IMG/VR virus record: IMGVR_UViG_3300007351_000027
DNA from: a virus
DNA: 42,210 nucleotides
Direction: 5' to 3' (one strand)
A model generated the notes under the pieces. The model did no database searches. It was not told where the DNA came from and saw only the letters and a program-made list of their open reading frames with translations. Positions within the stretch are counted from its first letter, which is position 1. Every line of letters starts with the position of its first letter. Shown here piece by piece: positions 8,994 through 42,210 of the stretch. A program made the position numbers and the translations under genes.

Positions 8994-9033
8994 GGAGCTT
9001 CAAGTGCGTGCAGGCGCTTGGGGCTCCTTTTTT
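8994..9033 (+). terminator. Rho-independent terminator (plus strand), convergent with the int stop codon
   Basis: 14-bp stem GGAGCTTCAAGTGC/GCGCTTGGGGCTCC (three G-U pairs), 6-nt loop, then TTTTTT (9028-9033). Confidence 0.7.
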
Positions 9034-10102
9034 ATTGGGCAGCATCGAGTCGGTCTACGGCTCCGTGATTGATCGTAGGCAGCCATTTCCCGTACGTGTC
9101 TGACGTAAGCTGGATACTGGCGTGTCCCAATTGCCGTTGGACGTACGTAATGGCCTCCCCCTGCTGTAGGAGCAGGGAGGCGTAGGTATGCCGTAGGCAA
9201 TGCGGCGAGAAGTGCTGAGGGAGCCCAGCCGCCTTCAGGATGCGGGACATGGCCCAGCGGACAAATCCGTCTCGCAAGGTCGCTCCGGCTGAATTAGGGA
9301 ACACCCACGGTACACCAGCGTTCCGCTGATTCTGCCAGTCCGACAGCACGGCAGTCAAATGCATCGACATATCGACTGTTCGACCATGCCCAGACTTGGG
9401 CAGCTGCAGCCGGCCTTTTGAGTAGGACCGAGAGACGCGGATCGTTCGATTCGCCAAGTCCAAGTCATCCCACTGCAGCGCCAGGGCCTCCCCGAGACGT
9501 AGCCCTGTGCCGGCCAGGAGGCAGAACAAAGGATACCAACGCTCGTGATTCTTGGCTTCCGTCAGGAACGTCTGCCGCTGTTGTGCTGTCATAGCCTTGA
9601 TTTGTTCTTGCCGCGTTGTGTGCGACGTAACGAGTCGAAGCTGACGCCCCAGCTTCTCAGCCGGATTAGCCGTCAGCAGACCGTCATCAACGGCTGCCCG
9701 CAGGACGGATCGGATTGTGGCGTGAATGCTTCGGACGGTGCTTTTGGAGAGTCCTGCAGAAAGTTTATCGACCAGCAGGGACTTAATGCGGCCTCGGTGG
9801 ATCTGGCGAACGGGTTGTGTGCCAAAAGTGGGAAGGAGATGATCCCGCAGCAGCTGCTGGTAGTTATCAGCAGTGCTCTCTCGGACAGTGCTTTTGATGG
9901 TAGCCAACCAGTGCTGCGTGTATGTGTCCAGGCTGATATTCGCTGCCACGACCGGCTGCGACCACTGGCGAGTCTTCGGACGCTCGATATCAAGGAAGTC
10001 TTCGGCTTCTTGTTTGGTGTCAAACGTCTTCCAGCGACGGAGACCAGCTCCGTCACGCCAATCTGCGACCCATTTCCCTCTTCGTTTCCGTACGCACGCC
10101 AT
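9032..10102 (-). CDS. int: Tyrosine recombinase / phage integrase
   Basis: 356 aa. TGLRLGEALAL (Arg I), HCLRHTYAS (H-x-x-R) and LGHASIQLTSDTYGKW (catalytic Tyr region). The N-terminus is SAM-like. Confidence 0.92.
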   Translation of the reverse strand: MACVRKRRGKWVADWRDGAGLRRWKTFDTKQEAEDFLDIERPKTRQWSQPVVAANISLDTYTQHWLATIKSTVRESTADNYQQLLRDHLLPTFGTQPVRQIHRGRIKSLLVDKLSAGLSKSTVRSIHATIRSVLRAAVDDGLLTANPAEKLGRQLRLVTSHTTRQEQIKAMTAQQRQTFLTEAKNHERWYPLFCLLAGTGLRLGEALALQWDDLDLANRTIRVSRSYSKGRLQLPKSGHGRTVDMSMHLTAVLSDWQNQRNAGVPWVFPNSAGATLRDGFVRWAMSRILKAAGLPQHFSPHCLRHTYASLLLQQGEAITYVQRQLGHASIQLTSDTYGKWLPTINHGAVDRLDAAQ

Positions 10103-14412: not shown

Positions 14413-15153
14413 CTACTTCTTCTCCCCTTTCCTCGCCCTGAACCAGTGGCCGCAATCATTGCATCGGAATCTGCGATACTTGTTCTGCGTCGTGTACGTA
14501 AACCCGCGAGACTGAAGCGACCGGCTGCCGCAATTCTCGCACGCAGGACGCTCCTGAAACAGCCGAGCGTTCAACCGCGCAGGCACCCACGGAGCCAGCT
14601 TCTTGTACACTCTCGGCAACAATGCCACGTCTCGTCGGTTATACCGCAGCATTTTCAGCAGAGCTAATTCATCACCCCTGATGCAATCCTTCCACAAGTC
14701 GAAATCAGTTTTCAGTTTCTTGCCGACTTTCAATCGCTCTGCCAGATAAACCAGCCTGTTGCTATTGAAGTTAAACACCTTCTTTGCCATCTTCTTCGTG
14801 TCGATTTGCACACACGGAGGAAGAGGCGGAAGTCCATGTATAAGACACTGAGTCATAATCCAACGTATATCGAAGTTGTCTCCGTTATGAGCGCACCAAG
14901 CATCGGCTTGACTCATCACTTCATGCAGCTTCAGCGTCACCTGCCGGTCATCTTTCGGGCTTGCCGGATCAACGCAGACAGACTCAACCTTTGAGCTGCC
15001 ATACCATAGCCAGCTTGCACAAATGATCGTCGCTTCTTCATCTATGTTCTCAGGCGATAAGTACCCGCCGTTGACTTTGAGACGCCAAAAGTATCCTTTA
15101 TTTGGCGTCGTCTCAATGTCCAAAAACAGAATCTTTGGTTTAGAACCACTCAT
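14413..15153 (-). CDS. DnaQ-like DEDD 3'-5' exonuclease with C-terminal zinc ribbon
   Basis: FLDIET (Exo I), HNGDNFD (Exo II), YNRRDV (Exo III), C-terminal CENCG...CNDCG. Start set at ATG 15153 (MSGSKPK) with GGAGAAGG upstream. Confidence 0.7.
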   Translation of the reverse strand: MSGSKPKILFLDIETTPNKGYFWRLKVNGGYLSPENIDEEATIICASWLWYGSSKVESVCVDPASPKDDRQVTLKLHEVMSQADAWCAHNGDNFDIRWIMTQCLIHGLPPLPPCVQIDTKKMAKKVFNFNSNRLVYLAERLKVGKKLKTDFDLWKDCIRGDELALLKMLRYNRRDVALLPRVYKKLAPWVPARLNARLFQERPACENCGSRSLQSRGFTYTTQNKYRRFRCNDCGHWFRARKGEKK

Positions 15154-15253
15154 CACCTTCTCCAGGTCGAGCCGGGGGATCATCTCCCGGCCATGCACCT
15201 AACAGCAGAATGCCGAAGAGCACTGCCGCAAACAGATACAACTCTGAATACAT
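15140..15253 (-). CDS. Possible 37-aa hydrophobic micro-protein
   Basis: Hand-translated: MYSELYLFAAVLFGILLLGAWPGDDPPARPGEGDEWF. ATG directly follows the upstream TAG. Weak evidence. Confidence 0.3.
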   Translation of the reverse strand: MYSELYLFAAVLFGILLLGAWPGDDPPARPGEGDEWF

Positions 15254-15643: not shown

Positions 15644-16349
15644 CCAGCACTCTCAGTGGATAGCGTCCTTCCGGTTTGCAATTTTCGTAGAACGGGCACA
15701 CAGACTGCACTTCACCCTTGTAGATGTTCGCGCACATCCAATCCGGGCACAGGTCTACTTTCGTCGGCTGCTTCGTGTTAACCGCATCGAGCAGCCTATC
15801 TTTCTCCGCAACCAATGCATCCCGGATGTCTTTACGCTCTTGCGCCGTTAACTCGATGCGCCACGACACGATCTCAAGCGTTGAAGGCTTGGAGCCGTCC
15901 CAGCGTCTGCCTGAATTGGTGTAGAGCACGACCACATGGCCGATTGGAGCATCTTCCATAGCCATGTACGCCGTAATCTGATCCACGTACCGGGGCTCGC
16001 ATTCCTCCGGCACAGTGTACTTGCGGGAAGTCTTTAGCTCTGTAGACTCACCGTCAGGCGGGCGTAAGTCTTGCGTACCGACCACTCCACAATGCTTAAC
16101 CTTCTGCTCTGCATACTCAATGCCGCACACATGTTGAAACAGAAGATGCCACGCCTCACCAGCCGCAAAAAGGCCCACCATTTCGTCAGTGACACGTTCC
16201 CCGAGTAGTCGCACCCAATAAGCTTTCCGTGGTGCCAAAAGCTCAGATACATGGACTTCATCAGGTTTCAGCTCCCTCGGCTTACTGAACGCTTCTTTGA
16301 CGAATGACCAGATTTCGTTAGCTCTCGCATTATCTTTTGTAATCCTCAC
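15594..16349 (-). CDS. PD-(D/E)XK exonuclease, Cas4/RecB-like with C-terminal Cys cluster
   Basis: GTQDL...STELKTS (D...E-x-K) and CPDWMC...CPFYENC (four Cys, Fe-S type arrangement). Confidence 0.65.
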   Translation of the reverse strand: MRITKDNARANEIWSFVKEAFSKPRELKPDEVHVSELLAPRKAYWVRLLGERVTDEMVGLFAAGEAWHLLFQHVCGIEYAEQKVKHCGVVGTQDLRPPDGESTELKTSRKYTVPEECEPRYVDQITAYMAMEDAPIGHVVVLYTNSGRRWDGSKPSTLEIVSWRIELTAQERKDIRDALVAEKDRLLDAVNTKQPTKVDLCPDWMCANIYKGEVQSVCPFYENCKPEGRYPLRVLVGEPKPKGASRGRKKA

Positions 16350-16861
16350 GCAACATTCTTTCTCTTGTTCTCTGACTGCTGACGGTTAGTTGCCCATCGG
16401 CAGTTGCTAGGCTCGTAATTGCCATTGACATTAACGCGATCTAGCGTCATACCCGCAGGACGTTCGCCCATGTCTGCCAGGAAGTTTTCAAACTGCAACC
16501 AACGCTCACAGACCTTAATGCCTCTACCTCCGTAATGATGCCAGTCGTGGCGTTTAGCTTGTGTACAACGAGCCACCATACTGCGCCACGATTGATACGT
16601 TGAAGAGGGAGAAGATCCCTGCAAACTATGCCCATGCTTAAATAGCTTACGTCTACCTTCTTTAGTTGCGACCAACCTTCTGCGACACCCACATGATTTT
16701 ATTTCTCCTGATTTGATGTGAGTATACCTCGCGATAAACCACTCTCCGCAGTGACACTCGCACCACCATTGGCTGTGTCCAGAATTAGCAATAGAATGCT
16801 GGCGAACAAGGAGAGAGTTGTCCTTAATTACCTTCATTCCCGCCGCCCTGCTCGCTGCCAT
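16346..16861 (-). CDS. HNH-like (degenerate beta-beta-alpha-Me) endonuclease-family protein, paralogue 1
   Basis: WWCECHCGE...SCGC Zn-cluster and YGGRGIKVCERWLQFENFLADMGERPAGMTLDRVNVNGNYEPSNCRWAT. Clear paralogue of 17405-17887 and 30884-31348. Confidence 0.65.
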   Translation of the reverse strand: MAASRAAGMKVIKDNSLLVRQHSIANSGHSQWWCECHCGEWFIARYTHIKSGEIKSCGCRRRLVATKEGRRKLFKHGHSLQGSSPSSTYQSWRSMVARCTQAKRHDWHHYGGRGIKVCERWLQFENFLADMGERPAGMTLDRVNVNGNYEPSNCRWATNRQQSENKRKNVA

Positions 16862-17404: not shown

Positions 17405-17887
17405 TTATCCCTCCTTACTTGTCTTTCGTTTGTTATACGCCTGTTGACTCCATGTTGCCCATCGGCAATTGCCAGGCTCATAATTGCCATCTACATTAAT
17501 TCTATCTATCGTCATGCCTACAGACGGCTTTTCGCCCATATCTGCTAAGAAGTTTTCAAACAACATCCAGCGTTCGCAGACACTAATCCCCCTCCCACCG
17601 TAATGAATATAAGCATCATGCTTAGGATTAAAACAGCGTTGCTTCATCGCATACCAAGAAAGGTATGTGCTCCCTTTCCCTTTTTGGCTTTGACCATGCT
17701 TAAAACTTCTAGTAGCTGTAGCTTCCCGATGTAAGCATCCACAAGATTTAGTGTTGCCTGACTGCAAGTTGTACTCAAGAACAATCAGGATCTCACCGCA
17801 CGAACACTCACACCAATAACGAGCTTGCCATCGTTTGCTGGATTTAGCTCGGTTAATGACAGTCAGCCTGCCAAAATTAGCCTTCAC
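17405..17887 (-). CDS. HNH-like endonuclease-family protein, paralogue 2
   Basis: YWCECSCGE...SCGC and YGGRGISVCERWMLFENFLADMGEKPSVGMTIDRINVDGNYEPGNCRWAT. GTG start. Confidence 0.65.
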   Translation of the reverse strand: MKANFGRLTVINRAKSSKRWQARYWCECSCGEILIVLEYNLQSGNTKSCGCLHREATATRSFKHGQSQKGKGSTYLSWYAMKQRCFNPKHDAYIHYGGRGISVCERWMLFENFLADMGEKPSVGMTIDRINVDGNYEPGNCRWATWSQQAYNKRKTSKEG

Positions 17888-19110: not shown

Positions 19111-19137
19111 ATAAAAAACCCTGCCACCTGAGCAGGG
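19111..19137 (-). terminator. Rho-independent terminator (minus strand)
   Basis: Minus strand reads CCCTGC-tcaggtg-GCAGGG followed by TTTTTTAT. Confidence 0.7.
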
Positions 19138-19428
19138 TCTAGGTTGTTGCTGGGAGCCGCCAGCGGTCCTTGCGTCCTTCAGCTATTGGCCCCAGCTAAG
19201 CTTTTTTACCAGCACTCCTAAAATTTAAGCCCACTTCCGGCGTCCTATAAGGGAACGCTCGCCTCGTGACAGGCACTCCGATTTGAGCAGGCTGATACGC
19301 CACGGCCACCTGCTATTTGTCGGCTCTTCCGCATCAAAGTGTCAGCGTACCCGGGGTCTGACACTGGCGTTAGTTTATAATACGGAAGCGGGCTTACTGC
19401 TTTATGCTGATATTCTCTACTCGTTTAA
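19111..19428 (-). ncRNA. Candidate structured ncRNA or long structured polA 3' UTR (~315 nt)
   Basis: No ORF with an SD. Nested stems seen by eye: CTTCCG/CGGAAG enclosing GTGTCAG/CTGACAC, AGCAGG/CCTGCT, and GCTGGGGCC/GGCTCCCAGC. Bounded by a candidate promoter and the terminator. Confidence 0.3.
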
Positions 19429-19433
19429 CAGTC

Positions 19434-19462
19434 ACTATAACAGCTTTATTCCCACCTATCCA
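19434..19462 (-). promoter_or_regulatory. Candidate extended -10 promoter overlapping the polA stop
   Basis: Minus strand reads TGGATA (19457-19462), 17 nt, TGtTATAGT (-10 at 19434-19439). The -35 is weak. Confidence 0.3.
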
Positions 19463-21839
19463 GCACTGCTACCTCTGCTGTAATCGGCACTGCCATATCC
19501 ACGCCAAAAGCTGCCTTGATCAGCCCATTCAAATTACCAGCTACCCGCTCAACAGCTGCAAGTGCAATTGCGTCATCCTTCGGAGCCACATCATCTATAA
19601 ACGCATCGTGTCCCTCTTGCACCATCAGCGGAAGCCCCCGATGCCACACAAGCCGCTTATACTCGTCCTGCACTGCCAGCCGGTAAATCACCAGAATCGA
19701 ATGCCCGGCTGACTGCACGATACGATTGATCGCCTCTCGCTCGATGGCCGGCGTAATTGCCTGATCAAACTCCCACCACTGGCCAAACGGATTCTCGATC
19801 TCACCAGTCGAGTGTAACTTCTGCAGCACATGCTCTTTCCAGCGGCTAACGCCGGGGTAGAGATTCTGCACCTTATGGTACAGCCTCCAATCCTCCTTCC
19901 CCGCTACTGCAAATAGCTTCTCTGGCCCAGCTCCGTACACGCCGGCAAAGTTAAACGTCTTGCCGATCTTCCGTTGCTCCGGCGTCACTTGCTCAGGCCG
20001 GATGCCAAATACACGAGCAGCAGCGTCCCTATGGATATCGACACCATCAATAAAAAGCTGACAAAGTTTCGGATCTGCACTGAGATGGGAAATGATGCGG
20101 TACTCGATGGCAGACAAGTCGCTGACAAGCAACTTACCGCCGATATAACGAGAAGTAAATAGTCCACGTAGCGGTTTCTCCACATTCTGCATGTTCGGCT
20201 GCTTACATCGCAGCCTAGTTGTCTCTGCCCCTGACACCTGGTAGTGAGCATGAATCAGTCCGTCACCGTCAGGATGCCAAATCTTGCGCCGGTACTCGTA
20301 GCAATTCGTATTCAGCTTCTTATGCGTGCTCTTGACTTCGAGCAGCAACTTCGCAGCCGGACACTTGTCTTGGATCTCGCCCAACACCTGCTCATTTGTC
20401 GCATCAACATCAAAGCCCATCGCATGAAATAGCGCCTTCATCTGCTGAGGGCTATCGACGTTAATCCCTGCTTCCTCAAATCGAGCCACAAAGTCAGCCT
20501 GCTTCTTCGGCAACTTCGACGGATCTTTCGACTTGATTTGCGCCGTGGCGATATGTAAGAAGTCAGCCTTGTAACGCCAAGCCAGCTCCTGCAGCTCCTT
20601 CTCTTTTACTGCTGCATACGTCTCCAGCTCTGCGATCTTGTTATCAAGTGCTGCCGGATCAACCGCAATACCGTTCAGCTCCGTGTCGCGGATTGCCGGC
20701 AGATAATCCATTGCCAGCTGAAAGCTTGATGACGGATGCTCTTCCTTCTGCTGATCCCTGAATAGGGCATAGTGATACATCAAATCCAGCGTCAAGTACG
20801 GTTCAATCAGCTCCGGCATTTGACTGGATAAGATGCCTCGATCCCACTCCGTATGCACCTTGGCTTCATATGCTGAGGCTCCGTACATTGACTTTGCCAG
20901 CCACTTCAAGCCAACACTATGACGACTCCGCTTCGGCTGCGTCGTATGCCACAAATACGTGTCGTGAAACGTGGCTTTTGGAAACTCGATGCCTTCAGCT
21001 CCGAGGAACACCACGTCGCCCTTGATGTTGTGGCCATAGATAACGCCAGTATATTCAGCAGCCAACTTCTTCAGCAGGGAATAGAAGCCGGGATGATCGG
21101 ACGGATGTAACTCAGGAATCAAACAGAACCACGTTCCGTCCGTCAGCCCGAGCATGGCTAGCTTGCCGCCCTCGTAAGGATAGACAAACTGCTCATCCCG
21201 ATCACGAGCATCTTTAGGCACGTCGATTTCAATATCCAAACCAATGGCCGGCTGTTGAAACAGCTCGATTAAATACTGATCCATAGGCAGCCCCGGCACA
21301 ATAAACTTTCGATCTGGTAACTCATACTGAAATGGGCGCAGCACCGTCTCTAGTACTACTCGTGCGTGCTCTCGCTTCTCATCAAACTGCCATTGGCTGA
21401 TGCCATACGTATGCTGAACAAGGTGCTGATCCTTCATGCGGGCTTTGTACAGCAGCCCACCCTTGCCTTCCAGCTTCCGCACGCCGCCATAGAGCGAGCT
21501 AACAGCTTCCTCGCCAATCGTCACAATCGGCAGAGTCGGGTATTGCAGTAGCAGCGGGTTGACGTACGCTTCCCGGCATTCTTTGATCACCGGCAAATCC
21601 GGCTTGTACCGATTGCGGCAATTCGCCGCAGCTACGATCACCGGAGTAATGTCAAGCCCGTCACACACCTGCTGCAACGTGTCCAGCTCATTCTGCGTCA
21701 ACGGCTGCGTCACCAACAGAATGATGTTAGGGGCCATCTCAGGGTCATCAAACGGCTCAACAAACTGCTTCTCCTTCTGTACACCCCAAGGGCAACTTGC
21801 ACAGCCGGGAATCTTCAATGGCTTCTTAGCCTTTGACAC
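19446..21839 (-). CDS. Family-A DNA polymerase with 3'-5' exonuclease domain and an N-terminal UDG-fold-like domain
   Basis: Exo motifs GLDIEID, HNIKGDVVFL, YLTLDLMY. Pol motifs DLSAIEYR (A), RKIGKTFNFAGVYG (B), GHDAF (C). The N-terminal ~190 aa (GCASCPW...IILLVTQP...IVTIGEEA) has a family-4 UDG-like layout (tentative). Confidence 0.9.
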   Translation of the reverse strand: MSKAKKPLKIPGCASCPWGVQKEKQFVEPFDDPEMAPNIILLVTQPLTQNELDTLQQVCDGLDITPVIVAAANCRNRYKPDLPVIKECREAYVNPLLLQYPTLPIVTIGEEAVSSLYGGVRKLEGKGGLLYKARMKDQHLVQHTYGISQWQFDEKREHARVVLETVLRPFQYELPDRKFIVPGLPMDQYLIELFQQPAIGLDIEIDVPKDARDRDEQFVYPYEGGKLAMLGLTDGTWFCLIPELHPSDHPGFYSLLKKLAAEYTGVIYGHNIKGDVVFLGAEGIEFPKATFHDTYLWHTTQPKRSRHSVGLKWLAKSMYGASAYEAKVHTEWDRGILSSQMPELIEPYLTLDLMYHYALFRDQQKEEHPSSSFQLAMDYLPAIRDTELNGIAVDPAALDNKIAELETYAAVKEKELQELAWRYKADFLHIATAQIKSKDPSKLPKKQADFVARFEEAGINVDSPQQMKALFHAMGFDVDATNEQVLGEIQDKCPAAKLLLEVKSTHKKLNTNCYEYRRKIWHPDGDGLIHAHYQVSGAETTRLRCKQPNMQNVEKPLRGLFTSRYIGGKLLVSDLSAIEYRIISHLSADPKLCQLFIDGVDIHRDAAARVFGIRPEQVTPEQRKIGKTFNFAGVYGAGPEKLFAVAGKEDWRLYHKVQNLYPGVSRWKEHVLQKLHSTGEIENPFGQWWEFDQAITPAIEREAINRIVQSAGHSILVIYRLAVQDEYKRLVWHRGLPLMVQEGHDAFIDDVAPKDDAIALAAVERVAGNLNGLIKAAFGVDMAVPITAEVAVLDRWE

Positions 21840-22986
21840 ACAGCACCTGTCGCAATTGCGTGACTATTTTGACTAGATCCTCTTGCTGCTGAATAACTGA
21901 TTCAATCGGTTTGTAAGCACCAGGAATCTCGTCAAGCACAGCAGCATCCTTACGGCACTCGACCCCATGGGTCTGGGCTGCCAGATCGTCGATGGTGAAC
22001 GATCGCTTGGCCTGCCCACGAGACATCTTTCGCCCGGCCCCATGCGACGCAGAGCAGAACGACTCGGGATTGCCGAGACCGCGCACAATGAACGACGAGG
22101 TACCCATTGAGCCCGGGATAATGCCGAATTCGCCTTCTCGGGCGCTGATCGCACCCTTCCGGGTGACGAAGACTTCTTCCCCGAAATGGACTTCCTCCGA
22201 GACATAGTTGTGGTGGCACTGAATCGGCGGATCGAAGTTAACCATCAGGCCATGAAACGCCGCGCTGACCACGGCCATAAGACGCGCCAGCATCACCGAC
22301 CGGTTCAGGTACGCATACCGCTGTGCCCACAGCAGATCATGGCGGTACGCGGCCATTTCTGGCGTGCCAGCCAAGAACACGGCGAGGTCTCGATCGGGCA
22401 GGTCATGATTGTGTGCGAGCGTCTTGGCAGTCTCAATATGGATCTCGGCCAGCGTTTTGCCGATGTTGCGTGACCCCGAGTGCAGCATGATCCACACCGT
22501 GTCGTGGGTATCCAGGCATACCTCAATGAAGTGATTCCCGCCCCCGAGCGTCCCGAGCTGGCGCCGTGCCCGGCCTTCCAGATCCTGGACCTCACGCGCT
22601 AAGCACTCGAAGGTCTCAAACAGGTCCGCCCCGCTATGGACGGGATCGGGATGGTCACTGAACCCTACCGGAATGGTCGCCTCTATCTCAGCGCGCAAGG
22701 CAGAGAGGGTATCTGGAAGCTGTGCGGCCGTCAGGGAGGTCTTCACCGCCGCCATGCCGCATCCAATGTCCACGCCCACGGCTGCGGGGCTTATGGCGTT
22801 CTTCATCGCAATGACGGAGCCAACGGTAGCACCCTTCCCGTAATGCACATCTGGCATGACTGCAACGTGGTGATACGCCCACGGCAACGCAGCGATGTTC
22901 TTCAACTGATCAAGTGCCTGTAACTCCACTTCATACACAGGAGCCCACAGCTTAATCGGCACTACCTTTCCTTGAAGAGTATCCAT
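21826..22986 (-). CDS. rtcB: RtcB 3'-phosphate/5'-hydroxyl RNA ligase
   Basis: 386 aa carrying the RtcB signature blocks VDIGCGM, GGGNHFIE, LHSGSRNIG, CHHNY and SASHGAGR. SD TAGGAGAAA. Overlaps the polA start by 14 nt. Confidence 0.93.
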   Translation of the reverse strand: MDTLQGKVVPIKLWAPVYEVELQALDQLKNIAALPWAYHHVAVMPDVHYGKGATVGSVIAMKNAISPAAVGVDIGCGMAAVKTSLTAAQLPDTLSALRAEIEATIPVGFSDHPDPVHSGADLFETFECLAREVQDLEGRARRQLGTLGGGNHFIEVCLDTHDTVWIMLHSGSRNIGKTLAEIHIETAKTLAHNHDLPDRDLAVFLAGTPEMAAYRHDLLWAQRYAYLNRSVMLARLMAVVSAAFHGLMVNFDPPIQCHHNYVSEEVHFGEEVFVTRKGAISAREGEFGIIPGSMGTSSFIVRGLGNPESFCSASHGAGRKMSRGQAKRSFTIDDLAAQTHGVECRKDAAVLDEIPGAYKPIESVIQQQEDLVKIVTQLRQVLCVKG

Positions 22987-23003
22987 CCGTTTTTCTCCTA
23001 AAA

Positions 23004-23080
23004 TGGTCTGCGAGGCAGGATTTGAACCTGCGGCCTCCTGGTTCCAAGCCAGGTCGTCTACCAGACTGACTTACTCGCAG
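23004..23080 (-). tRNA. tRNA-Pro: tRNA-Pro (anticodon UGG), CCA-encoded, 77 nt
   Basis: Hand-folded: acceptor CTGCGAG/CTCGCAG, anticodon stem CCTGG/CCAGG with loop CTTGGAA, T-arm GCAGG-TTCAAAT-CCTGC, A73, CCA. C1:G72 and A73 are as in bacterial tRNA-Pro. D-stem has one A-G mismatch, and position 37 is A. Confidence 0.85.
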
Positions 23081-23845
23081 TTAACTAAGCATCTCCTGCA
23101 CCTGCGCTTCGCTAAAATCCGTGGGGTCTTTCCCGTCTACGCTATAAATCTTTACCGTCTTTGCTACGGTGGACAACTGCTCCGCAATCTCCACCGAGCC
23201 GGCAAAGCCGGGCAAATCTCCGTCCAGCGCAATCACCACATCCCGGCCTGCCAATTGAGCATTGAGACTACCGTTGTAGTGCCTACCACACAAGCCCACG
23301 CTATCAGCCCATTGCGAAATGTAGGCTGCGTCTCCGATGCCTTCACAGAGTACGACCTTGCCGTACTTCTTCGGCCCCAGCGCCCAGCTGATCCAATGGT
23401 GCCGAGGGCCGGGCGGATTAAGATAGGGGCGAGGGGCGTCACCCATTGCCCGAGCCACGAACCATTTGCACTGTTGCTGCTCGTCGTAGACGGGAAGAAT
23501 CAGGTACCAACAATCACCAATGAACCGTTCAAGCTCCGGATACGTAGCAGATAACACATCAGGTAAGCACCAACCAATTCTATGCTGCAGTATCGTCGTC
23601 ATCGGAACAGGCCACGGTTGCAGATTTGCCCACTCGTCATCAGCCACAAACTGTTTTGTGGGTGGCAGCCCTCGCCACTCTCCAGCCACCCGCATCGAGT
23701 GCTCTGATTCCTCTGCTTCCCACACCGAGCCGCAACCAAAGCACTTCATCAGCTTATTACCGTCTCGGCTAAACTCTGACCAATAGCTCTCTCTACGGCA
23801 GCTACACGTCACGTTCCACCTGTCCTTCAATCTGCATGGTGTCAA
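23081..23845 (-). CDS. DNA primase (zinc finger plus Toprim domain)
   Basis: N-terminal CSC...CFGCG, Toprim VVLCEGIGDAAY and IALDGDLPG. Stop codon abuts tRNA nucleotide 1. Start overlaps the helicase end, so the exact start is uncertain. Confidence 0.8.
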   Translation of the reverse strand: MTPCRLKDRWNVTCSCRRESYWSEFSRDGNKLMKCFGCGSVWEAEESEHSMRVAGEWRGLPPTKQFVADDEWANLQPWPVPMTTILQHRIGWCLPDVLSATYPELERFIGDCWYLILPVYDEQQQCKWFVARAMGDAPRPYLNPPGPRHHWISWALGPKKYGKVVLCEGIGDAAYISQWADSVGLCGRHYNGSLNAQLAGRDVVIALDGDLPGFAGSVEIAEQLSTVAKTVKIYSVDGKDPTDFSEAQVQEMLS

Positions 23846-24701
23846 AATTACATTCCCATGCGCTATACCGATGCTTAATCCTCCGGCCCTTCCCCTTGCC
23901 CAGCTCCAGCTGGTAGTACGTGTCGTGGTTCTCTACCAGCAACAGCATCACGTCTGCGTGAGACGATTTGCCGACTCGACTACGATACAACCGCGTCATG
24001 GCCGAGCGTCGAAAGCTACTCCGCTGCCGGCCTTGAGCATCGGGCGGATAATTCAGCTGCGTGCCGGTAATCACCGTAGTCTGGTACTTCTTCGCCAGGC
24101 CACGCAGGGCTTTTGTGGTGTAGCTCACATCCAGCCAATCGGCCTCATGCCCGCTACCAGTAATCAGGTCCAAGTAATCCACTACCACGAAGTCAGGCGG
24201 CGCTGTCTTCGCCAGCTCGCCAATCGTGGCGTCTATCGACGCAATACTAAAGCTCTGATCCTGAACATCGGCCACGTACAAATTCTCCGGCCGCTGATCC
24301 AGCGTCGAAGCCTTCTCATAGATTTCCAGTACGTCACCTACCAGATCCTCGCCATTGAAATGCAGGATGGTGGCTCCCTGATTCAGGTAACAGCTCGCCG
24401 TGAAGACCATGAAGTGTGTCTTCCCCTGGTGAGGCACTCCGCCGATGATCATTAGCTCTTCTTGGCGCAGACCACCACCAAGAATTTCGTCGTACCAGTC
24501 TAGGCCGGTACTGAGGAACGGCTTTTTAAGACCTTCAGGAGGGAGTTCATTAACGCGATATATAGGAATAGCCGCGTGAGTACTGTCTTCCCCGATTGCC
24601 TGCTCAAGCGTAGCGATTGCACGGCGTACGTCGGCCTCTGATCCGCTCGTCCAAGCTTGCTGTATGTGTTTAGCTCCGTCACTCAGTTTCCCTTTGTCCA
24701 C
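23802..24701 (-). CDS. DnaB-like / RecA-fold replicative helicase
   Basis: GLDWYDEILGGGL...IIGGVPHQGKTHF (Walker A) and DFVVVDYLDLI (Walker B). GTG start. Confidence 0.8.
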   Translation of the reverse strand: MDKGKLSDGAKHIQQAWTSGSEADVRRAIATLEQAIGEDSTHAAIPIYRVNELPPEGLKKPFLSTGLDWYDEILGGGLRQEELMIIGGVPHQGKTHFMVFTASCYLNQGATILHFNGEDLVGDVLEIYEKASTLDQRPENLYVADVQDQSFSIASIDATIGELAKTAPPDFVVVDYLDLITGSGHEADWLDVSYTTKALRGLAKKYQTTVITGTQLNYPPDAQGRQRSSFRRSAMTRLYRSRVGKSSHADVMLLLVENHDTYYQLELGKGKGRRIKHRYSAWECNFDTMQIEGQVERDV

Positions 24702-26009: not shown

Positions 26010-26039
26010 ACTATATCACATCCCTGACAGCACTGTCAA
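26010..26039 (-). promoter_or_regulatory. Strong sigma70-type extended -10 promoter (middle/replication operon)
   Basis: Minus strand reads TTGACA (26034-26039), 18 nt, TGaTATAGT (-10 at 26010-15). The -35 is part of the TGACAG-tg-CTGTCA inverted repeat. Confidence 0.65.
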
Positions 26040-36667: not shown

Positions 36668-37606
36668 TTGATCAAAGGCCCGCGTGCAATGTCGCATGTG
36701 GATAACCCGAAGAAGGAGAGACGAGTAGTGGAAGCAGTGATCGAAGGAAAGCCTGAGCAGCGCGTGATTGGCCCAGTAGACGAATCGGAGTTGCCTGAAG
36801 TGCGTGATACCGCGATTCGGGCGTCGTCGGCTCGGTATCGCGGAGCTGAGGCAGTGGAGGCGGAAGAGAAGGAAGAGCAGAAGAAAGCCGAGGAAGCCCC
36901 GAAAGGACAAGCTAAATCGGAAGAGCAGGTGCAGTCGGAGCTGCTGTTAGGGAAATTCAAGACGGTTGAGGAAATGGGCAAGTCGTATCAAGAGTTGGAG
37001 GCTCATGCGACACGGCTTGCACAGGAGATGGCGAGCCTGAAACAGCCTCAATCGCAGTCGTCGGACGAGGATGAACAGCTGGAGATTCCGAAAGAGCTGG
37101 AACAGGAATTGTTCGACAGTCCGAAGACGGCGGTAGCAAAGATCGTCGATTTGGCTGCGAAACATGCGGTGGGCAAAGTCAGGGGCGAGCAGAAAGCTAA
37201 GACTAAGGAACAGCAGGTCAAAGAAGTCCAAGGCTGGTTTGAGAAAGAATGCTCGGACTTGAAAGGCAACCGCGCAGCGGCATTGGCGATTGAAGGGTTG
37301 GCGTCGGAAGCAGAAGGTTCGACGTTGCTGGAGAAGTTTCAAAACGCGACGAAGACCTACCGAGAATTGGTGCAAGCGGCGAAAGTAGAAGCCGGCACGC
37401 AAGCTCGGGAAACGGCGTCAGAAACGCAACGACAAGTGGATAGGGCGACGATGCCTGAAGGCAAAAAGGCGTCAGGTAACGGACGCAAGATTTGGAAAGC
37501 TTCTGATATTGAGTGGATGATGGAGCATGACACGGCTCAATATCAGCGGCTGCAGAACGAGATCGTCAAGGCTCGGCAAGAAGGGCGAGTACGGGAAGAC
37601 CTGTAA
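36668..37606 (+). CDS. Scaffolding protein
   Basis: 312 aa, highly charged (E/K/Q-rich) and helical, directly upstream of the major capsid gene. Exact start uncertain (TTG 36668 or ATG 36689). Confidence 0.65.
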   Translation: MIKGPRAMSHVDNPKKERRVVEAVIEGKPEQRVIGPVDESELPEVRDTAIRASSARYRGAEAVEAEEKEEQKKAEEAPKGQAKSEEQVQSELLLGKFKTVEEMGKSYQELEAHATRLAQEMASLKQPQSQSSDEDEQLEIPKELEQELFDSPKTAVAKIVDLAAKHAVGKVRGEQKAKTKEQQVKEVQGWFEKECSDLKGNRAAALAIEGLASEAEGSTLLEKFQNATKTYRELVQAAKVEAGTQARETASETQRQVDRATMPEGKKASGNGRKIWKASDIEWMMEHDTAQYQRLQNEIVKARQEGRVREDL

Positions 37607-37659
37607 CACGCAAGACTTGTAAGGAGCCTTGCCGACAACGCTAAGGAGGGCGTTGGGCA

Positions 37660-38562
37660 ATGGCTGCAGGAAATGTAACTACTACCACAGCTGCGAATTT
37701 TATTCCTGAGCTGTGGGGACCGGAGATTCGGTATTTTCTCCGGAAGAAGTTGATCATGGCGAATTTGGTCAAGCGGATCAATTTCGTCGGGAAAGCGGGG
37801 GATACGCTTCATATCCCGGATCTGTCTGAGCTTGGTACGACTGCGAAGTCGGCTTCGACGGATGTAAGTTTTGAGACGTTCACTGAGACGAAGTTTGATC
37901 TCAACATCGACAAGCACTTCTACGCGGCGTTTAAAGTTGAAGACATCGCGGAAGTGCAGAGCTTCGCGGATCTCCGGGCGGAATATACCCGCTCGGCTGG
38001 GTACGCGATGGCTCGCAAGATCGACTCGACGTTGCACGATCTGCAGTCTTCGATGACGCGAGTCATCGGAGGCGACGGTAGCACGTCGTGGTCTGCGAGC
38101 GCCGCTTCTAACGCGGGCAATGGGACGGATCTGACCGAAGAGGGTCTTCGGAATGCGTTGGAGACTTTGGATCTGGCGGATGTCCCGAAAGAGGATCGCT
38201 ACCTCGTGATCAATCCTCGGCAGCTGAACGTGCTGCGTGGGATTGCTCGGCTGAGCGAGATGCAGACGGTCGGTTTTTCGAGCCCGCTGGTGAGCGGCAT
38301 GTTCGAGATGCCGGTCTTCGGGTTGCGTGTTCTGGTGACGACCAATACCGCCACGATTACGGCGGACGACACGACCACGGATTATGACGCGAATCTCCTG
38401 TTTCACAAGGATGCGATGATCCTGGCGATGCAGAAGGGTGTTCGCACTCAGGCGCAGTATTTTGTGGACAGCCTGGCGTGGAAGGTGGTCGTAGACGCAA
38501 TTTGGGGCGTGGGGCTGTATCGCTCTAATCATGCGTTGGTGCTGGTCACGCCGCAAGCGTAA
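37660..38562 (+). CDS. Major capsid protein (HK97-fold type)
   Basis: 300 aa. N-terminal ...ANFIPELWGPEI... is typical of podoviral/N4-gp56-like capsid proteins. SD AAGGAGGG. Followed by a terminator. Confidence 0.8.
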   Translation: MAAGNVTTTTAANFIPELWGPEIRYFLRKKLIMANLVKRINFVGKAGDTLHIPDLSELGTTAKSASTDVSFETFTETKFDLNIDKHFYAAFKVEDIAEVQSFADLRAEYTRSAGYAMARKIDSTLHDLQSSMTRVIGGDGSTSWSASAASNAGNGTDLTEEGLRNALETLDLADVPKEDRYLVINPRQLNVLRGIARLSEMQTVGFSSPLVSGMFEMPVFGLRVLVTTNTATITADDTTTDYDANLLFHKDAMILAMQKGVRTQAQYFVDSLAWKVVVDAIWGVGLYRSNHALVLVTPQA

Positions 38563-38575
38563 GGAAAGGAAGGTT

Positions 38576-38608
38576 CCCGAGGGAGCAGTAGCCCCTCGGG
38601 GCTTTCTG
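38576..38608 (+). terminator. Rho-independent (probably partial) terminator after the capsid gene
   Basis: CCCGAGGG-agcagtagc-CCCTCGGG followed by GCTTTCTGT. Confidence 0.6.
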
Positions 38609-38609
38609 T

Positions 38610-38684
38610 AATTCCCTAATGAATGACCTGGTGACAGGGCGACATAGTGAAACGAGGGGAGCCGGCCAGCTTCGTTAGGGAATT
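38610..38684. repeat. 10-bp perfect inverted repeat AATTCCCTAA ... TTAGGGAATT enclosing 55 nt
   Basis: Read directly in the capsid-adaptor intergenic region. Confidence 0.7.
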
Positions 38685-38719
38685 TCAGAAGGCAGTAACC
38701 GCGCAATGGAGGCGCAATA

Positions 38720-39361
38720 GTGACACGACAGCAATTGATGGATCGCTGCTTGGAAACGGTTGGCGATTCGACGCTCACAACTCAAGCTTCTGAATGGTTG
38801 GATAACATCCTACTTGAGATTGATGGACTTGGTTATTGGCGCTTCAACGAAGACACAGACACAATTACGACAGTAGACAGCATAGGAGACTACGCGCAGC
38901 CTGCGTCGTATAGCAAGGGCCTGATTATTACTCCGGGCACAATCGGCAAGCCTCTCGATCAAGTATCACTTCACACGTTGCTTGATGCGCGATCAGACAG
39001 TGCGACAGGCACGCCCACGATGTTTGCTCTCTTTAACGGGCGAGTCTACGTTTATCCAACTCCGGTTACAGGCTCGTTGCCTGTGCTGCAGTGCTATTTC
39101 TACGAGCAGATTACGTTGCCGACTGATAGCGTGACAGACATTGAAACATTGGTAGGCATCAAGAAGAAATGGCACAAGTACCTGCTGGACGGCATGATTG
39201 CACAGGGGTTGAAGCACATCGACGATGAGCGGCAGGGTGAAGCCCAAGCACTGTGGGATCAAGACAAGGTGATTATGATGGCGGATAACGAGGAATTTGT
39301 CACGCCCCGAGAGAAGGAAATGGACCGGCCTACTGAGGTAATTAAGCCGAGGGAACAATAA
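38720..39361 (+). CDS. Virion structural protein (head-tail adaptor candidate)
   Basis: 213 aa. GTG start with GGAGG 7 nt upstream. First gene after the capsid. N-terminal pattern is loosely shared with the next gene. Confidence 0.5.
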   Translation: MTRQQLMDRCLETVGDSTLTTQASEWLDNILLEIDGLGYWRFNEDTDTITTVDSIGDYAQPASYSKGLIITPGTIGKPLDQVSLHTLLDARSDSATGTPTMFALFNGRVYVYPTPVTGSLPVLQCYFYEQITLPTDSVTDIETLVGIKKKWHKYLLDGMIAQGLKHIDDERQGEAQALWDQDKVIMMADNEEFVTPREKEMDRPTEVIKPREQ

Positions 39362-41822: not shown

Positions 41823-42210
41823 GTGACGTTCGATGAATATGGACTCGCAGAGATCCGGTGCATGGATTGCGGCGTGCCAATGAAACGCCGGGTGCTACGA
41901 AAACAGGCCATTGTAGACGAAAAGAAGAACCTGCTTGGATATGTCACTGACGAAGCTGGAAACCGAGTGGTCGTTCCAATCTTGGTACGGACTCGTCACT
42001 TTCACGAGCAGAAAGTCTCAACCGGATCAAACTCGTTCGCAAGAATCTTCCGCTGCAAGGAATGCAGTAGTGTACCGGTGGACAAGGATAAGTTGACGCG
42101 GCAAATCAAGCTGGCATGGGTTGAGGAAATGACGTTTGCAGGGAAGTCGCTATCAGATAAGAAGCGGCATTTGAAGGCGAATGAGCGTATGGCGGTAAGG
42201 GGAATCCTGT
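41823..42210 (+). CDS. Zinc-ribbon protein upstream of the tail fibre (runs off the window and finishes at 99-101 after circularisation)
   Basis: Hand-translated from GTG 41823: (V)TFDEYGLAEIRCMDCGVPMKRR...FRCKECSSVPVDKD...MAVRGIL. Missing from the ORF track because it has no in-window stop. Confidence 0.55.
   Translation, partial: MTFDEYGLAEIRCMDCGVPMKRRVLRKQAIVDEKKNLLGYVTDEAGNRVVVPILVRTRHFHEQKVSTGSNSFARIFRCKECSSVPVDKDKLTRQIKLAWVEEMTFAGKSLSDKKRHLKANERMAVRGIL
42112..42210. repeat. Terminal exact duplicate of 1-99
   Basis: See feature 1-99. Confidence 0.9.

Follow-up and report, generated by a model that had tools for sequence, protein, structure and literature searches.

Why should a phage of about 42 kb carry exactly one tRNA gene, and why should that gene stand among its replication genes, directly ahead of an RNA ligase? 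The question is raised by the IMG/VR record IMGVR_UViG_3300007351_000027, whose 42,210 bases are the window analysed here. On its minus strand the gene order is helicase, primase, tRNA-Pro(UGG), rtcB and family A DNA polymerase (PolA), as the initial annotation had it; the order is borne out by Pfam and PHROG matches, with the primase resting mainly on PHROG 47. What bacterial and phage RtcB enzymes act on physiologically is still under debate, as is the reason for carrying accessory tRNA genes. The locus is a one-tRNA phage example of the known association between accessory tRNA genes and rtcB. What is new, as judged from comparison with related phages, is that a tRNA-Pro with A rather than G at position 37 (A37) and a complete rtcB form an acquired cassette that has been grafted precisely between primase and polymerase. 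We lean, with some reserve, towards the view that the tRNA and RtcB act jointly during infection, the one replacing and the other repairing damaged tRNAs ('replace and repair').

The tRNA gene is intact by every measure applied. ARAGORN calls it tRNA-Pro(UGG) and finds no other tRNA in the whole 42-kb genome, Rfam RF00005 covers it over the full model 1-71 at 66.3 bits (gathering score 29, E=2e-12), and a tRNA-Pro-specific pattern matches the window once as against 0.00 times in shuffles; the predictors return neither a pseudogene nor another isotype. The bacterial ProRS identity set, C1:G72, A73, G35 and G36 in E. coli numbering, is complete in the phage tRNA and also in E. coli proM. The tertiary nucleotides U8, A14, G18G19, G15:C48, T54-T55-C56 and A58 are all kept, and the Rfam alignment shows just one non-standard pair, A10:G25, which belongs to the D stem. 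The anticodon loop reads C32-U33-U34-G35-G36-A37-A38 (CUUGGAA). The initial annotation had listed C1:G72 with A73, a mismatched D-stem pair, and A where E. coli tRNA-Pro has G37, and all three can be read directly. m1G37, made by TrmD from G37, is regarded as universal in tRNAs that read CCN codons; this TrmD substrate is missing from the phage tRNA, and E. coli proM has it.

RtcB joins 3'-phosphate or 2',3'-cyclic-phosphate ends directly to 5'-hydroxyl ends, with GTP and Mn2+. The phage protein matches Pfam PF01139 over its full length at 420 bits (cut-off 27) and PHROG 1075 at 1e-138. All five signature blocks noted earlier were located, DIGCG beginning at residue 73, GGGNHF at 148, HSGSR at 169, HHNY at 258 and SHGAGR at 314, and in PDB alignments they fall on the active-site motifs DINCG, GSGNHF, HTGSR, HN and HGAGR of P. 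horikoshii RtcB. In that enzyme the metal-binding and GMP-accepting residues are presumably D95, C98, N202/H203, H234, H329 and H404. The metal-binding Asp, Cys and His positions and the GMP-accepting His are all matched by the phage motifs, none is missing, and by alignment the phage RtcB keeps every catalytic residue. It scores 184 bits against the E. coli-type equivalog NF007153 (cut-off 407) and 150 bits against the PrfH-coupled model TIGR03073 (cut-off 272), and its highest NCBIfam bit score is with the model for exteins of intein-containing RtcB.

These scores bear on the idea that the RtcB substrate is not tRNA but, for example, nicked rRNA, mRNA or nucleic-acid ends to be capped, and that the tRNA is mainly a processing or expression element defining the 5' end of the rtcB-polA message. 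PrfH-coupled RtcB paralogs of bacteria repair 16S rRNA (PMC9304027). The isotypes found upstream of rtcB elsewhere are varied (Phe, Asp, Leu, Arg, Cys and Pro), and in the arrays L101, L145 and L209 rtcB lies upstream of the tRNAs, which fits embedding in a tRNA operon and not a substrate pair. The phage RtcB, however, falls short of the PrfH-coupled cut-off and has no prfH nearby, and its tRNA keeps all the conserved tertiary and identity nucleotides of E. coli tRNA-Pro but G37, which would be needless in a processing signal. We consider such a non-tRNA role improbable.

The origin of the pair became apparent from sibling phages. Relatives of the primase number four among 5.8 billion proteins, and three of them lie on 39-42 kb contigs, the siblings; the comparison covers the 16-kb replication-region loci L024-L027. 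The sibling order is helicase, primase, an 87-aa gene and PolA, the 87-aa gene of L025 and L026 being DUF4326 (5.5e-25), and no tRNA and no RtcB occur in these four 16-kb loci. Flanking genes are 70-73% identical (protein or DNA) between the window and L024-L027, with the helicase at about 71% nucleotide identity to L024, L025 and L027. Against the same three loci, blastn identity of about 70% runs through helicase and primase and ends at window position 23088; homology restarts at 21835 in L025 and deeper in PolA in the other siblings. The 1.25 kb without a match coincides exactly with tRNA plus rtcB; it is the sole non-homologous stretch of the helicase-to-polA block, and its GC content is 57.7% as against 53.1% for the genome. 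Since homology breaks at 23088 and 21835, tRNA and rtcB can be read as one acquired cassette. The presence and absence of the cassette between close relatives is patchy in the manner of horizontal gene transfer, and by this comparison it was horizontally acquired, replacing the siblings' small gene between primase and PolA.

The graft uses no spare nucleotides: the primase stop touches the tRNA, and rtcB supplies the GTG of PolA. On the left, the primase C-terminus (...QEMLS and stop) is kept and the tRNA starts right after it, the TAA at 23083-23081 directly abutting C1 at 23080, as had been noted earlier. The encoded CCA end (23006-23004) is 17 nt from the rtcB ATG at 22986, and that gap does hold a Shine-Dalgarno (SD) sequence. 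On the right, where the sibling PolA begins ATG GCT AAG AAG, the window reads AAG GCT AAG AAG. The ancestral ATG was lost because the rtcB end, ...GTC AAA GGC TAA, overlaps there, and PolA must therefore start at the GTG at 21839, inside the rtcB 3' end, with a 14-nt overlap. An SD-like AGGTG lies 4 nt upstream of this GTG, the only in-frame start left. Translation of PolA is probably coupled to rtcB, and by this reading of the junction its expression is now tied to the cassette. The initial annotation had placed the pair 'inside the replication operon'. The position stands, but the slot is variable and siblings fill it with a DUF4326-type gene, so that the location would reflect a cassette swap into a variable slot and no link to replication.

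Borders of this kind would also suit a passenger, that is, the last tRNA and the rtcB of a mobile array, captured by illegitimate or homing-associated recombination, tolerated and contributing little. The cassette edges are gene ends, the PolA junction has a GGCTAA microhomology and the cassette GC is above that of the genome; arrays with the same tRNA-Pro-to-rtcB junction are known (L156, L048, L072 and L119), and HNH genes occur near the cassette in the window and beside RtcB in L151 and L156. Yet neither gene has decayed in a 42-kb genome whose packaging is constrained; since PolA translation relies on the cassette 3' end, selection would have kept the arrangement; known homologs of RtcB reach only about 70% identity, so that capture would not be recent; and the window HNH proteins are without homologs near arrays (120 loci listed). 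A mere passenger is therefore, in our judgement, unlikely. The source of the cassette could not be traced among RtcB homologs, the best of which are only 70-72% identical to the phage protein; the closest ones examined, P0007 and P0018 in phage-like contigs, have no tRNA.

The joint arrival also bears on the classical explanation of phage tRNAs, codon supplementation, under which RtcB would be an unrelated neighbour. U34 lets a tRNA-Pro read both CCA and CCG, the latter being the commonest proline codon of the phage (45%). The exact match of UGG, however, is CCA, the rarest proline codon of the phage, which makes up 15% over the whole genome and 8% in the genes for helicase, primase and PolA; siblings that lack the tRNA use it more (19-30%), a comparison confined to phages. 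Proline content is normal (4.5%) and equal in early and late genes, and the tRNA came together with rtcB. Supplementation as the sole function seems to us a poor candidate.

Is the pairing peculiar to this phage? The A37 tRNA-Pro(UGG) pattern used for searching, CTTGGA-N14-GGTTCRAATCC-N9-GACCA, occurs in at least 120 bacterial loci and at least 120 viral contigs, and the corresponding G37 pattern in at least 120 IMG/VR contigs; the A37 and G37 totals are lower bounds, and the G37 control exists for viruses only. The bacterial loci listed (L031-L150) come from species-representative genomes and span at most 8 kb each, and the viral loci (L246-L365) come from IMG/VR. Among the 120 bacterial A37 loci listed, 79 hold at least 5 tRNAs and 52 at least 10, with a maximum of 28, and these tRNA-rich loci are the long accessory tRNA arrays (L-arrays) known from the literature. 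An RtcB homolog (25-66% identity) lies within the same 8 kb or less in 34 of the 120, in every case on the tRNA strand. Megabase genomes hold few copies of rtcB, so this occupancy of about 28% is, by our estimate, far above expectation. In matched viral samples, RtcB is present in 6/120 A37 loci and 0/120 G37 loci listed (Fisher p=0.029), and same-strand tRNAs lie upstream of rtcB in 6/20 viral RtcB loci. RtcB genes occur in 690 of 50,697 GenBank phage records.

The geometry recurs as well. A tRNA-Pro lies 23-50 nt upstream of rtcB, with an SD in the spacer, in L064, L095, L048, L072, L119 and L156; the first two are solo tRNA-Pro/rtcB pairs, and L048, L072 and L119 are alphaproteobacterial arrays with an RtcB clade of 30% identity. 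In the viral loci L313 and L273 the distance between a tRNA-Pro and the RtcB match is about 60 nt or less. L156 (1-6593) is a 22-tRNA array with Ro60/TROVE, an HNH gene and an RtcB 70% identical to that of the phage, in which tRNA-Pro(GGG) stands 50 nt upstream of rtcB; by its gene content it combines a Ro-RtcB RNA-repair module with an L-array. A pairing specific to proline, suggested by the tRNA-Pro genes that directly adjoin rtcB in several RtcB clades, was considered and dropped, since the RtcB-centred samples show five other isotypes just upstream of rtcB (Phe, Asp, Leu, Arg and Cys) and the Pro-centred searches were biased. What these neighbourhoods safely show is rtcB lying, time and again, within operons of accessory tRNAs.

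Several observations weigh against joint action of tRNA and ligase. Most metagenomic RtcB relatives at 60-71% identity (74/80) have no tRNA within 3 kb, and the closest phage-like RtcB homologs, L151 and L154, have none; the cultured phages ANB28 and PHB04 lack an annotated tRNA within 3 kb of the gene, and that of Floof is 2 kb off. The phage RtcB is below both named-subfamily cut-offs, so that neither of these subfamilies defines its substrate. T4 and T5 tRNA-Pro keep G37, so that a phage tRNA-Pro does not, on this comparison, require A37. The association of tRNA and rtcB could, on the sequence evidence, be one of co-mobility and not of joint function.

Position 37 itself extends well beyond this phage. 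The initial annotation had suggested that the A37 variant might escape a TrmD-dependent or anticodon-loop-specific nuclease, but A37 is not special to this phage, being common in phage and array tRNA-Pro. The phage tRNA is 79-82% identical, unusual D arm included, to the closest array tRNA-Pro (L075, L038 and the Variovorax family), and E. coli proM is only 74% identical to it. In the bacterial arrays listed, A outnumbers G at position 37 in Leu-UAG (36 vs 2), Leu-CAG (13 vs 2), Leu-GAG (7 vs 3) and Arg-CCG (15 vs 1), and E. coli argX (Arg-CCG), leuT (Leu-CAG) and proM (Pro-UGG) all have G37. Phe-GAA, in which A would be the expected base, is reversed in these arrays, with 23 G vs 7 A, the E. 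coli controls being for Arg, Leu and Pro. Arrays reached through RtcB and not through tRNA-Pro (L156 and metagenome loci) show the same tendency, and T5 has A37 in Leu-UAG and G37 in Phe. As side observations, His-GUG has G in about a third of cases in arrays, and Asp-GUC has any base. By these counts A37 is a common, recurrent state of mobile tRNA-Pro genes and not a private lesion of this phage, and where cellular tRNAs have m1G37, the mobile sets seem to have A37 as a rule. Since other normally G37 array tRNAs share A37, it would be a general property, whether TrmD independence or loop divergence, and not a bespoke escape mutation. A literature search returned no paper that connects phage or array tRNAs with A37 or TrmD, and none describing departures at position 37 across array isotypes.

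Two further observations concern unusual tRNA genes. The exact 20-nt anticodon arm of the phage tRNA recurs in the viral contigs L022 (3150-3245) and L023 (480-575), in tRNA-like sequences with aberrant T arms for which ARAGORN makes no call and which might represent tRNA-Pro(A37) genes that are either decayed or unusual. In arrays of different phyla we also noted tRNA-Ile(UAU) genes of 94-96 nt (L038 4541-4636, L047 3960-4053, L069 4083-4176, L075 4025-4119 and L094 5117-5212), which have a long class-II-like variable arm and usually adjoin tRNA-Arg(UCU). The idea that RtcB serves as a splicing ligase for intron-bearing array tRNAs was abandoned, since the extra length of these genes is variable arm and not intron.

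How might the cassette be expressed? The hairpin at 19140-19116 is the first minus-strand terminator-like site after the promoter candidate at 26039, and a consensus scan of the minus strand from 26039 to 19140 found no terminator and only one weak promoter-like site. We infer a single transcript from helicase to polA, out of which the tRNA would have to be cut, and since no terminator or strong promoter intervenes, its excision would sever that transcript. The initial annotation had proposed excision by RNase P and RNase Z that would also cut the message; the severing remains the expected outcome, but RNase Z is an unlikely agent. An encoded CCA is an anti-determinant for RNase Z, and 3' maturation would therefore more likely proceed by an endonuclease with exonuclease trimming. 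Cleavage by RNase P at tRNA nucleotide 1 would end the primase message exactly at its UAA with zero 3' nucleotides. Ribosomes terminating there might, to judge from this arrangement, be prone to rescue by tmRNA or ArfA.

In the joint reading that we favour, tRNA and rtcB would be transcribed early with the replication genes as one transcript, RNase P would cleave at the stop of the primase gene, the CCA end would be freed by endonuclease and exonuclease trimming, and the leftover rtcB-polA mRNA would have its 5' end just upstream of the rtcB SD. The A37 tRNA would be a putative proline decoder that TrmD, which methylates G37, could not modify, hence TrmD-independent, and would differ from the host tRNA-Pro in the anticodon loop. 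RtcB would reseal RNAs, most likely tRNAs, cut to 2',3'-cyclic-phosphate and 5'-OH ends by host toxins or defence nucleases, and replacement and repair together would sustain translation during infection. The initial annotation had called the pair a combined module against tRNA-targeting host defence: tRNA and RtcB are indeed intact and coupled, and by the homology breaks they arrived as one unit, but the anti-defence role is something that we infer. 'Replace and repair' is plausible and fits the published L-array and rtcB neighbourhoods.

The closest precedent is the L-array. L-arrays are spread by horizontal transfer and have HNH and rtcB genes nearby (Santamaria-Gomez et al. 2021, NAR, PMC8421152). 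In Anabaena, L-array and rtcB are co-induced under translational stress, 23 of 26 array tRNAs are aminoacylated in vivo, and the authors proposed repair plus sponge or replacement roles (PMC8421152). Position 37 is not discussed there, as far as a text search for 'A37', 'G37', 'tRNAPro' and 'anticodon loop' shows (PMC8421152). The phage tRNA resembles those of L-arrays in being accessory, horizontally spread, on the same strand as an adjoining rtcB, with HNH genes in the vicinity, and in diverging from housekeeping copies, here at A37. It departs from them in number, since L-arrays hold 10-43 tRNAs and the phage has one, and in setting, the cassette lying in the replication operon of a 42-kb temperate phage, where a stress-responsive direct-repeat promoter is not evident.

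Phage precedents for each half of the cassette also exist. T4 Pnkp and Rnl1 are thought to undo the cleavage of tRNA-Lys by PrrC, as cited in PMC10264068. Like them, the present phage encodes an RNA sealing activity; unlike RtcB, they are a heal-and-seal pair, a kinase-phosphatase and an ATP ligase, that makes 3'-OH and 5'-P ends, and the T4 tRNA-Pro has G37 and lies away from the ligase. Loop mutations of phage tRNAs have been proposed to evade anticodon nucleases (van den Berg et al. 2023, PMC10264068), and T5 tRNAs neutralise PARIS and Retron-Eco7 (PMC11464382, PMC11555353). T5 is comparable in carrying tRNA copies with altered anticodon loops, which replace host tRNAs depleted by immune nucleases, but no RtcB adjoins these tRNAs, its tRNA-Pro has G37, and the known targets are Lys and Tyr rather than Pro. 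The RtcB proteins of cultured phages, at 52-67% identity, belong to the same family and are labelled RtcB-like or tRNA-splicing ligase; they occur mostly in large tRNA-rich phages, and those of ANB28, Floof and PHB04 have no directly adjacent tRNA.

A Y RNA mimics tRNA, and as in Ro60-Y RNA-rtcBA operons, a tRNA or tRNA-like RNA gene here precedes rtcB. In contrast to those operons, the phage has a genuine full tRNA (66 bits), and no Ro60, RtcA or RtcR is present in the window. Both rsr (Ro60)-Y RNA-rtcBA operons and an RtcR-regulated rtcBA operon are described in bacteria (PMC7790460). A rationale for the altered base comes from charging: tRNA-Pro with unmodified G37 is poorly charged (Clifton et al., PMC8643618), and a TrmD-free A37 copy might for that reason be of use.

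A wholly different function, tied to lysogeny, would arise if integration destroyed the host tRNA-Pro gene and the phage tRNA replaced it, a mechanism described as tRNA-dependent lysogeny (Guerrero-Bustamante and Hatfull 2024, PMC10865867). The phage is, by its tyrosine integrase, temperate and has exactly one tRNA, and chromosomal homologs of the integrase sit on tRNA genes. Those targets, however, are tRNA-Thr and tRNA-Lys genes that remain intact, reconstituted and not tRNA-Pro; the siblings have an orthologous integrase (63-66%; contigs of L027 and L026) with no tRNA in the scanned 16-kb stretches. No 12-mer or longer is common to the tRNA and the rest of the genome, no tRNA fragment or attP is found near the integrase, and the tRNA, part of the lytic replication operon, has no promoter-like site immediately ahead of it. 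We hold this explanation to be very unlikely. In the integrase homologs at 57-61% identity, the int 3' end overlaps an intact opposite-strand tRNA-Thr(UGU) or tRNA-Lys(CUU), at L239 4202-4277, L241 1812-1887 and L242 4164-4239, an overlap suggesting, for this family, an attP within the coding end of int. Siblings hold two tyrosine recombinase genes (L024 4364-5458, L025 5644-6693, L027 4955-5998 and L244 3001-4104): the one just upstream of helicase is only 28% identical to the window integrase and has no counterpart in the window, and the second is orthologous to that integrase, at 63-66% identity.

The window appears to be a complete phage genome of about 42.1 kb, since an identical 99-bp repeat stands at both ends (1-99 = 42112-42210). 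Terminase and portal genes are on the plus strand and a long early block is on the minus strand. In 50,697 GenBank phage records nothing exceeds 26.5% identity to PolA or 30.5% to the portal protein, megablast of the region against GenBank phages gave zero matches, and by these comparisons the phage belongs to an uncultured lineage that no cultured phage resembles. A primase-based scan of IMG/VR found no relatives, and a PolA-profile scan of one genome per species (185,579 species) gave 63 pattern matches, none of them real, and hence no prophage or host. The sole host hint is that integrase homologs 55-60% identical carry the names Nitrospira/Nitrospirales. The coordinates of the features are collected in Table 1.

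Table 1. Features of the replication region and related elements in the 42,210-base window, with the basis of each call.
Feature	Coordinates	Strand	Basis
tRNA-Pro(UGG), 77 nt, CCA encoded, A37, C32, A10:G25 mismatch	23004-23080	minus	ARAGORN, Rfam
17-nt spacer TTTTAGGAGAAAAACGG with rtcB Shine-Dalgarno AGGAG	22987-23003	minus	direct reading
RtcB 3'-phosphate/5'-hydroxyl RNA ligase, 386 aa, intact	21826-22986	minus	Pfam, PHROG, PDB alignments
Acquired cassette, tRNA-Pro + rtcB	21836-23087	minus	blastn homology break against siblings
DnaB-like replicative helicase	23802-24701	minus	Pfam DnaB_C 3e-15, PHROG 19 1e-25
Toprim/DnaG-like primase, maximal open reading frame	23081-23845	minus	PHROG 47 'DNA primase' 2.4e-16
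Family A DNA polymerase (PolA)	19446-21839	minus	Pfam DNA_pol_A 8e-46
Sigma-70-like promoter candidate, TTGACA-18-TATAGT, 11/12 matches	26010-26039	minus	consensus scan, not evidence of function
Intrinsic-terminator-like hairpin, 10-bp stem then T-run, TTTATTACTT	19116-19140	minus	downstream of polA
Tyrosine integrase	9032-10102	minus	
Paralogous HNH endonuclease genes, downstream of polA	16346-16861 and 17405-17887	minus	PHROG 374

For the primase, the Toprim, DnaG and PDB 5GUJ matches are sub-threshold. Its start may fall anywhere within 23749-23845, the database gene call giving 222 aa, and the true start is probably between 23749 and 23812. The two HNH genes share DNA stretches that are 76-80% identical, and no HNH family is among the called genes of the sibling loci. 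A proposal that these endonucleases are the array-associated HNH type was rejected, with zero homologs in the 120 array loci listed. PADLOC left RtcB and eight other unannotated proteins unmatched and gave one weak match, DEDDh and Cas-associated, for the protein at 14413-15198. Elsewhere in the window, the first large plus-strand open reading frame (ORF; 101-1885), almost without database matches, contains a 131-nt direct repeat (551-681 and 974-1104, 76% identical), and a 411-aa minus-strand ORF at 37543-38778, unmatched by PHROG and PADLOC, lies among the plus-strand structural genes and may be either a moron or an ORF-calling artefact.

For the biology of phages and mobile elements, the locus is a stripped-down natural experiment, with a single tRNA and a single ligase, in a phage of 42 kb whose siblings differ at exactly that slot. 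With a host, or once moved into a model system, the cassette would allow direct tests of 'replace and repair' and of A37-based TrmD independence. The most interesting by-product is the systematic A37 of mobile tRNAs, which bears on tRNA modification and on TrmD as an antibiotic target. A bolder reading, doubtful as it stands, takes the A37 tRNA and RtcB as the minimal form of a widespread strategy of mobile elements, in which replacement tRNAs of the m1G37 type (Pro, Leu-CUN and Arg-CGG), carried by phages and tRNA arrays, are recoded to A37 and a co-expressed RtcB reseals cuts. If this is true, A37 tRNAs would be functional at once in an expression burst, without TrmD methylation, and would escape the notice of any nuclease or toxin that recognises the anticodon loop with its m1G37; the implication would be a host defence or stress pathway, so far unrecognised, that works through TrmD-dependent tRNAs.

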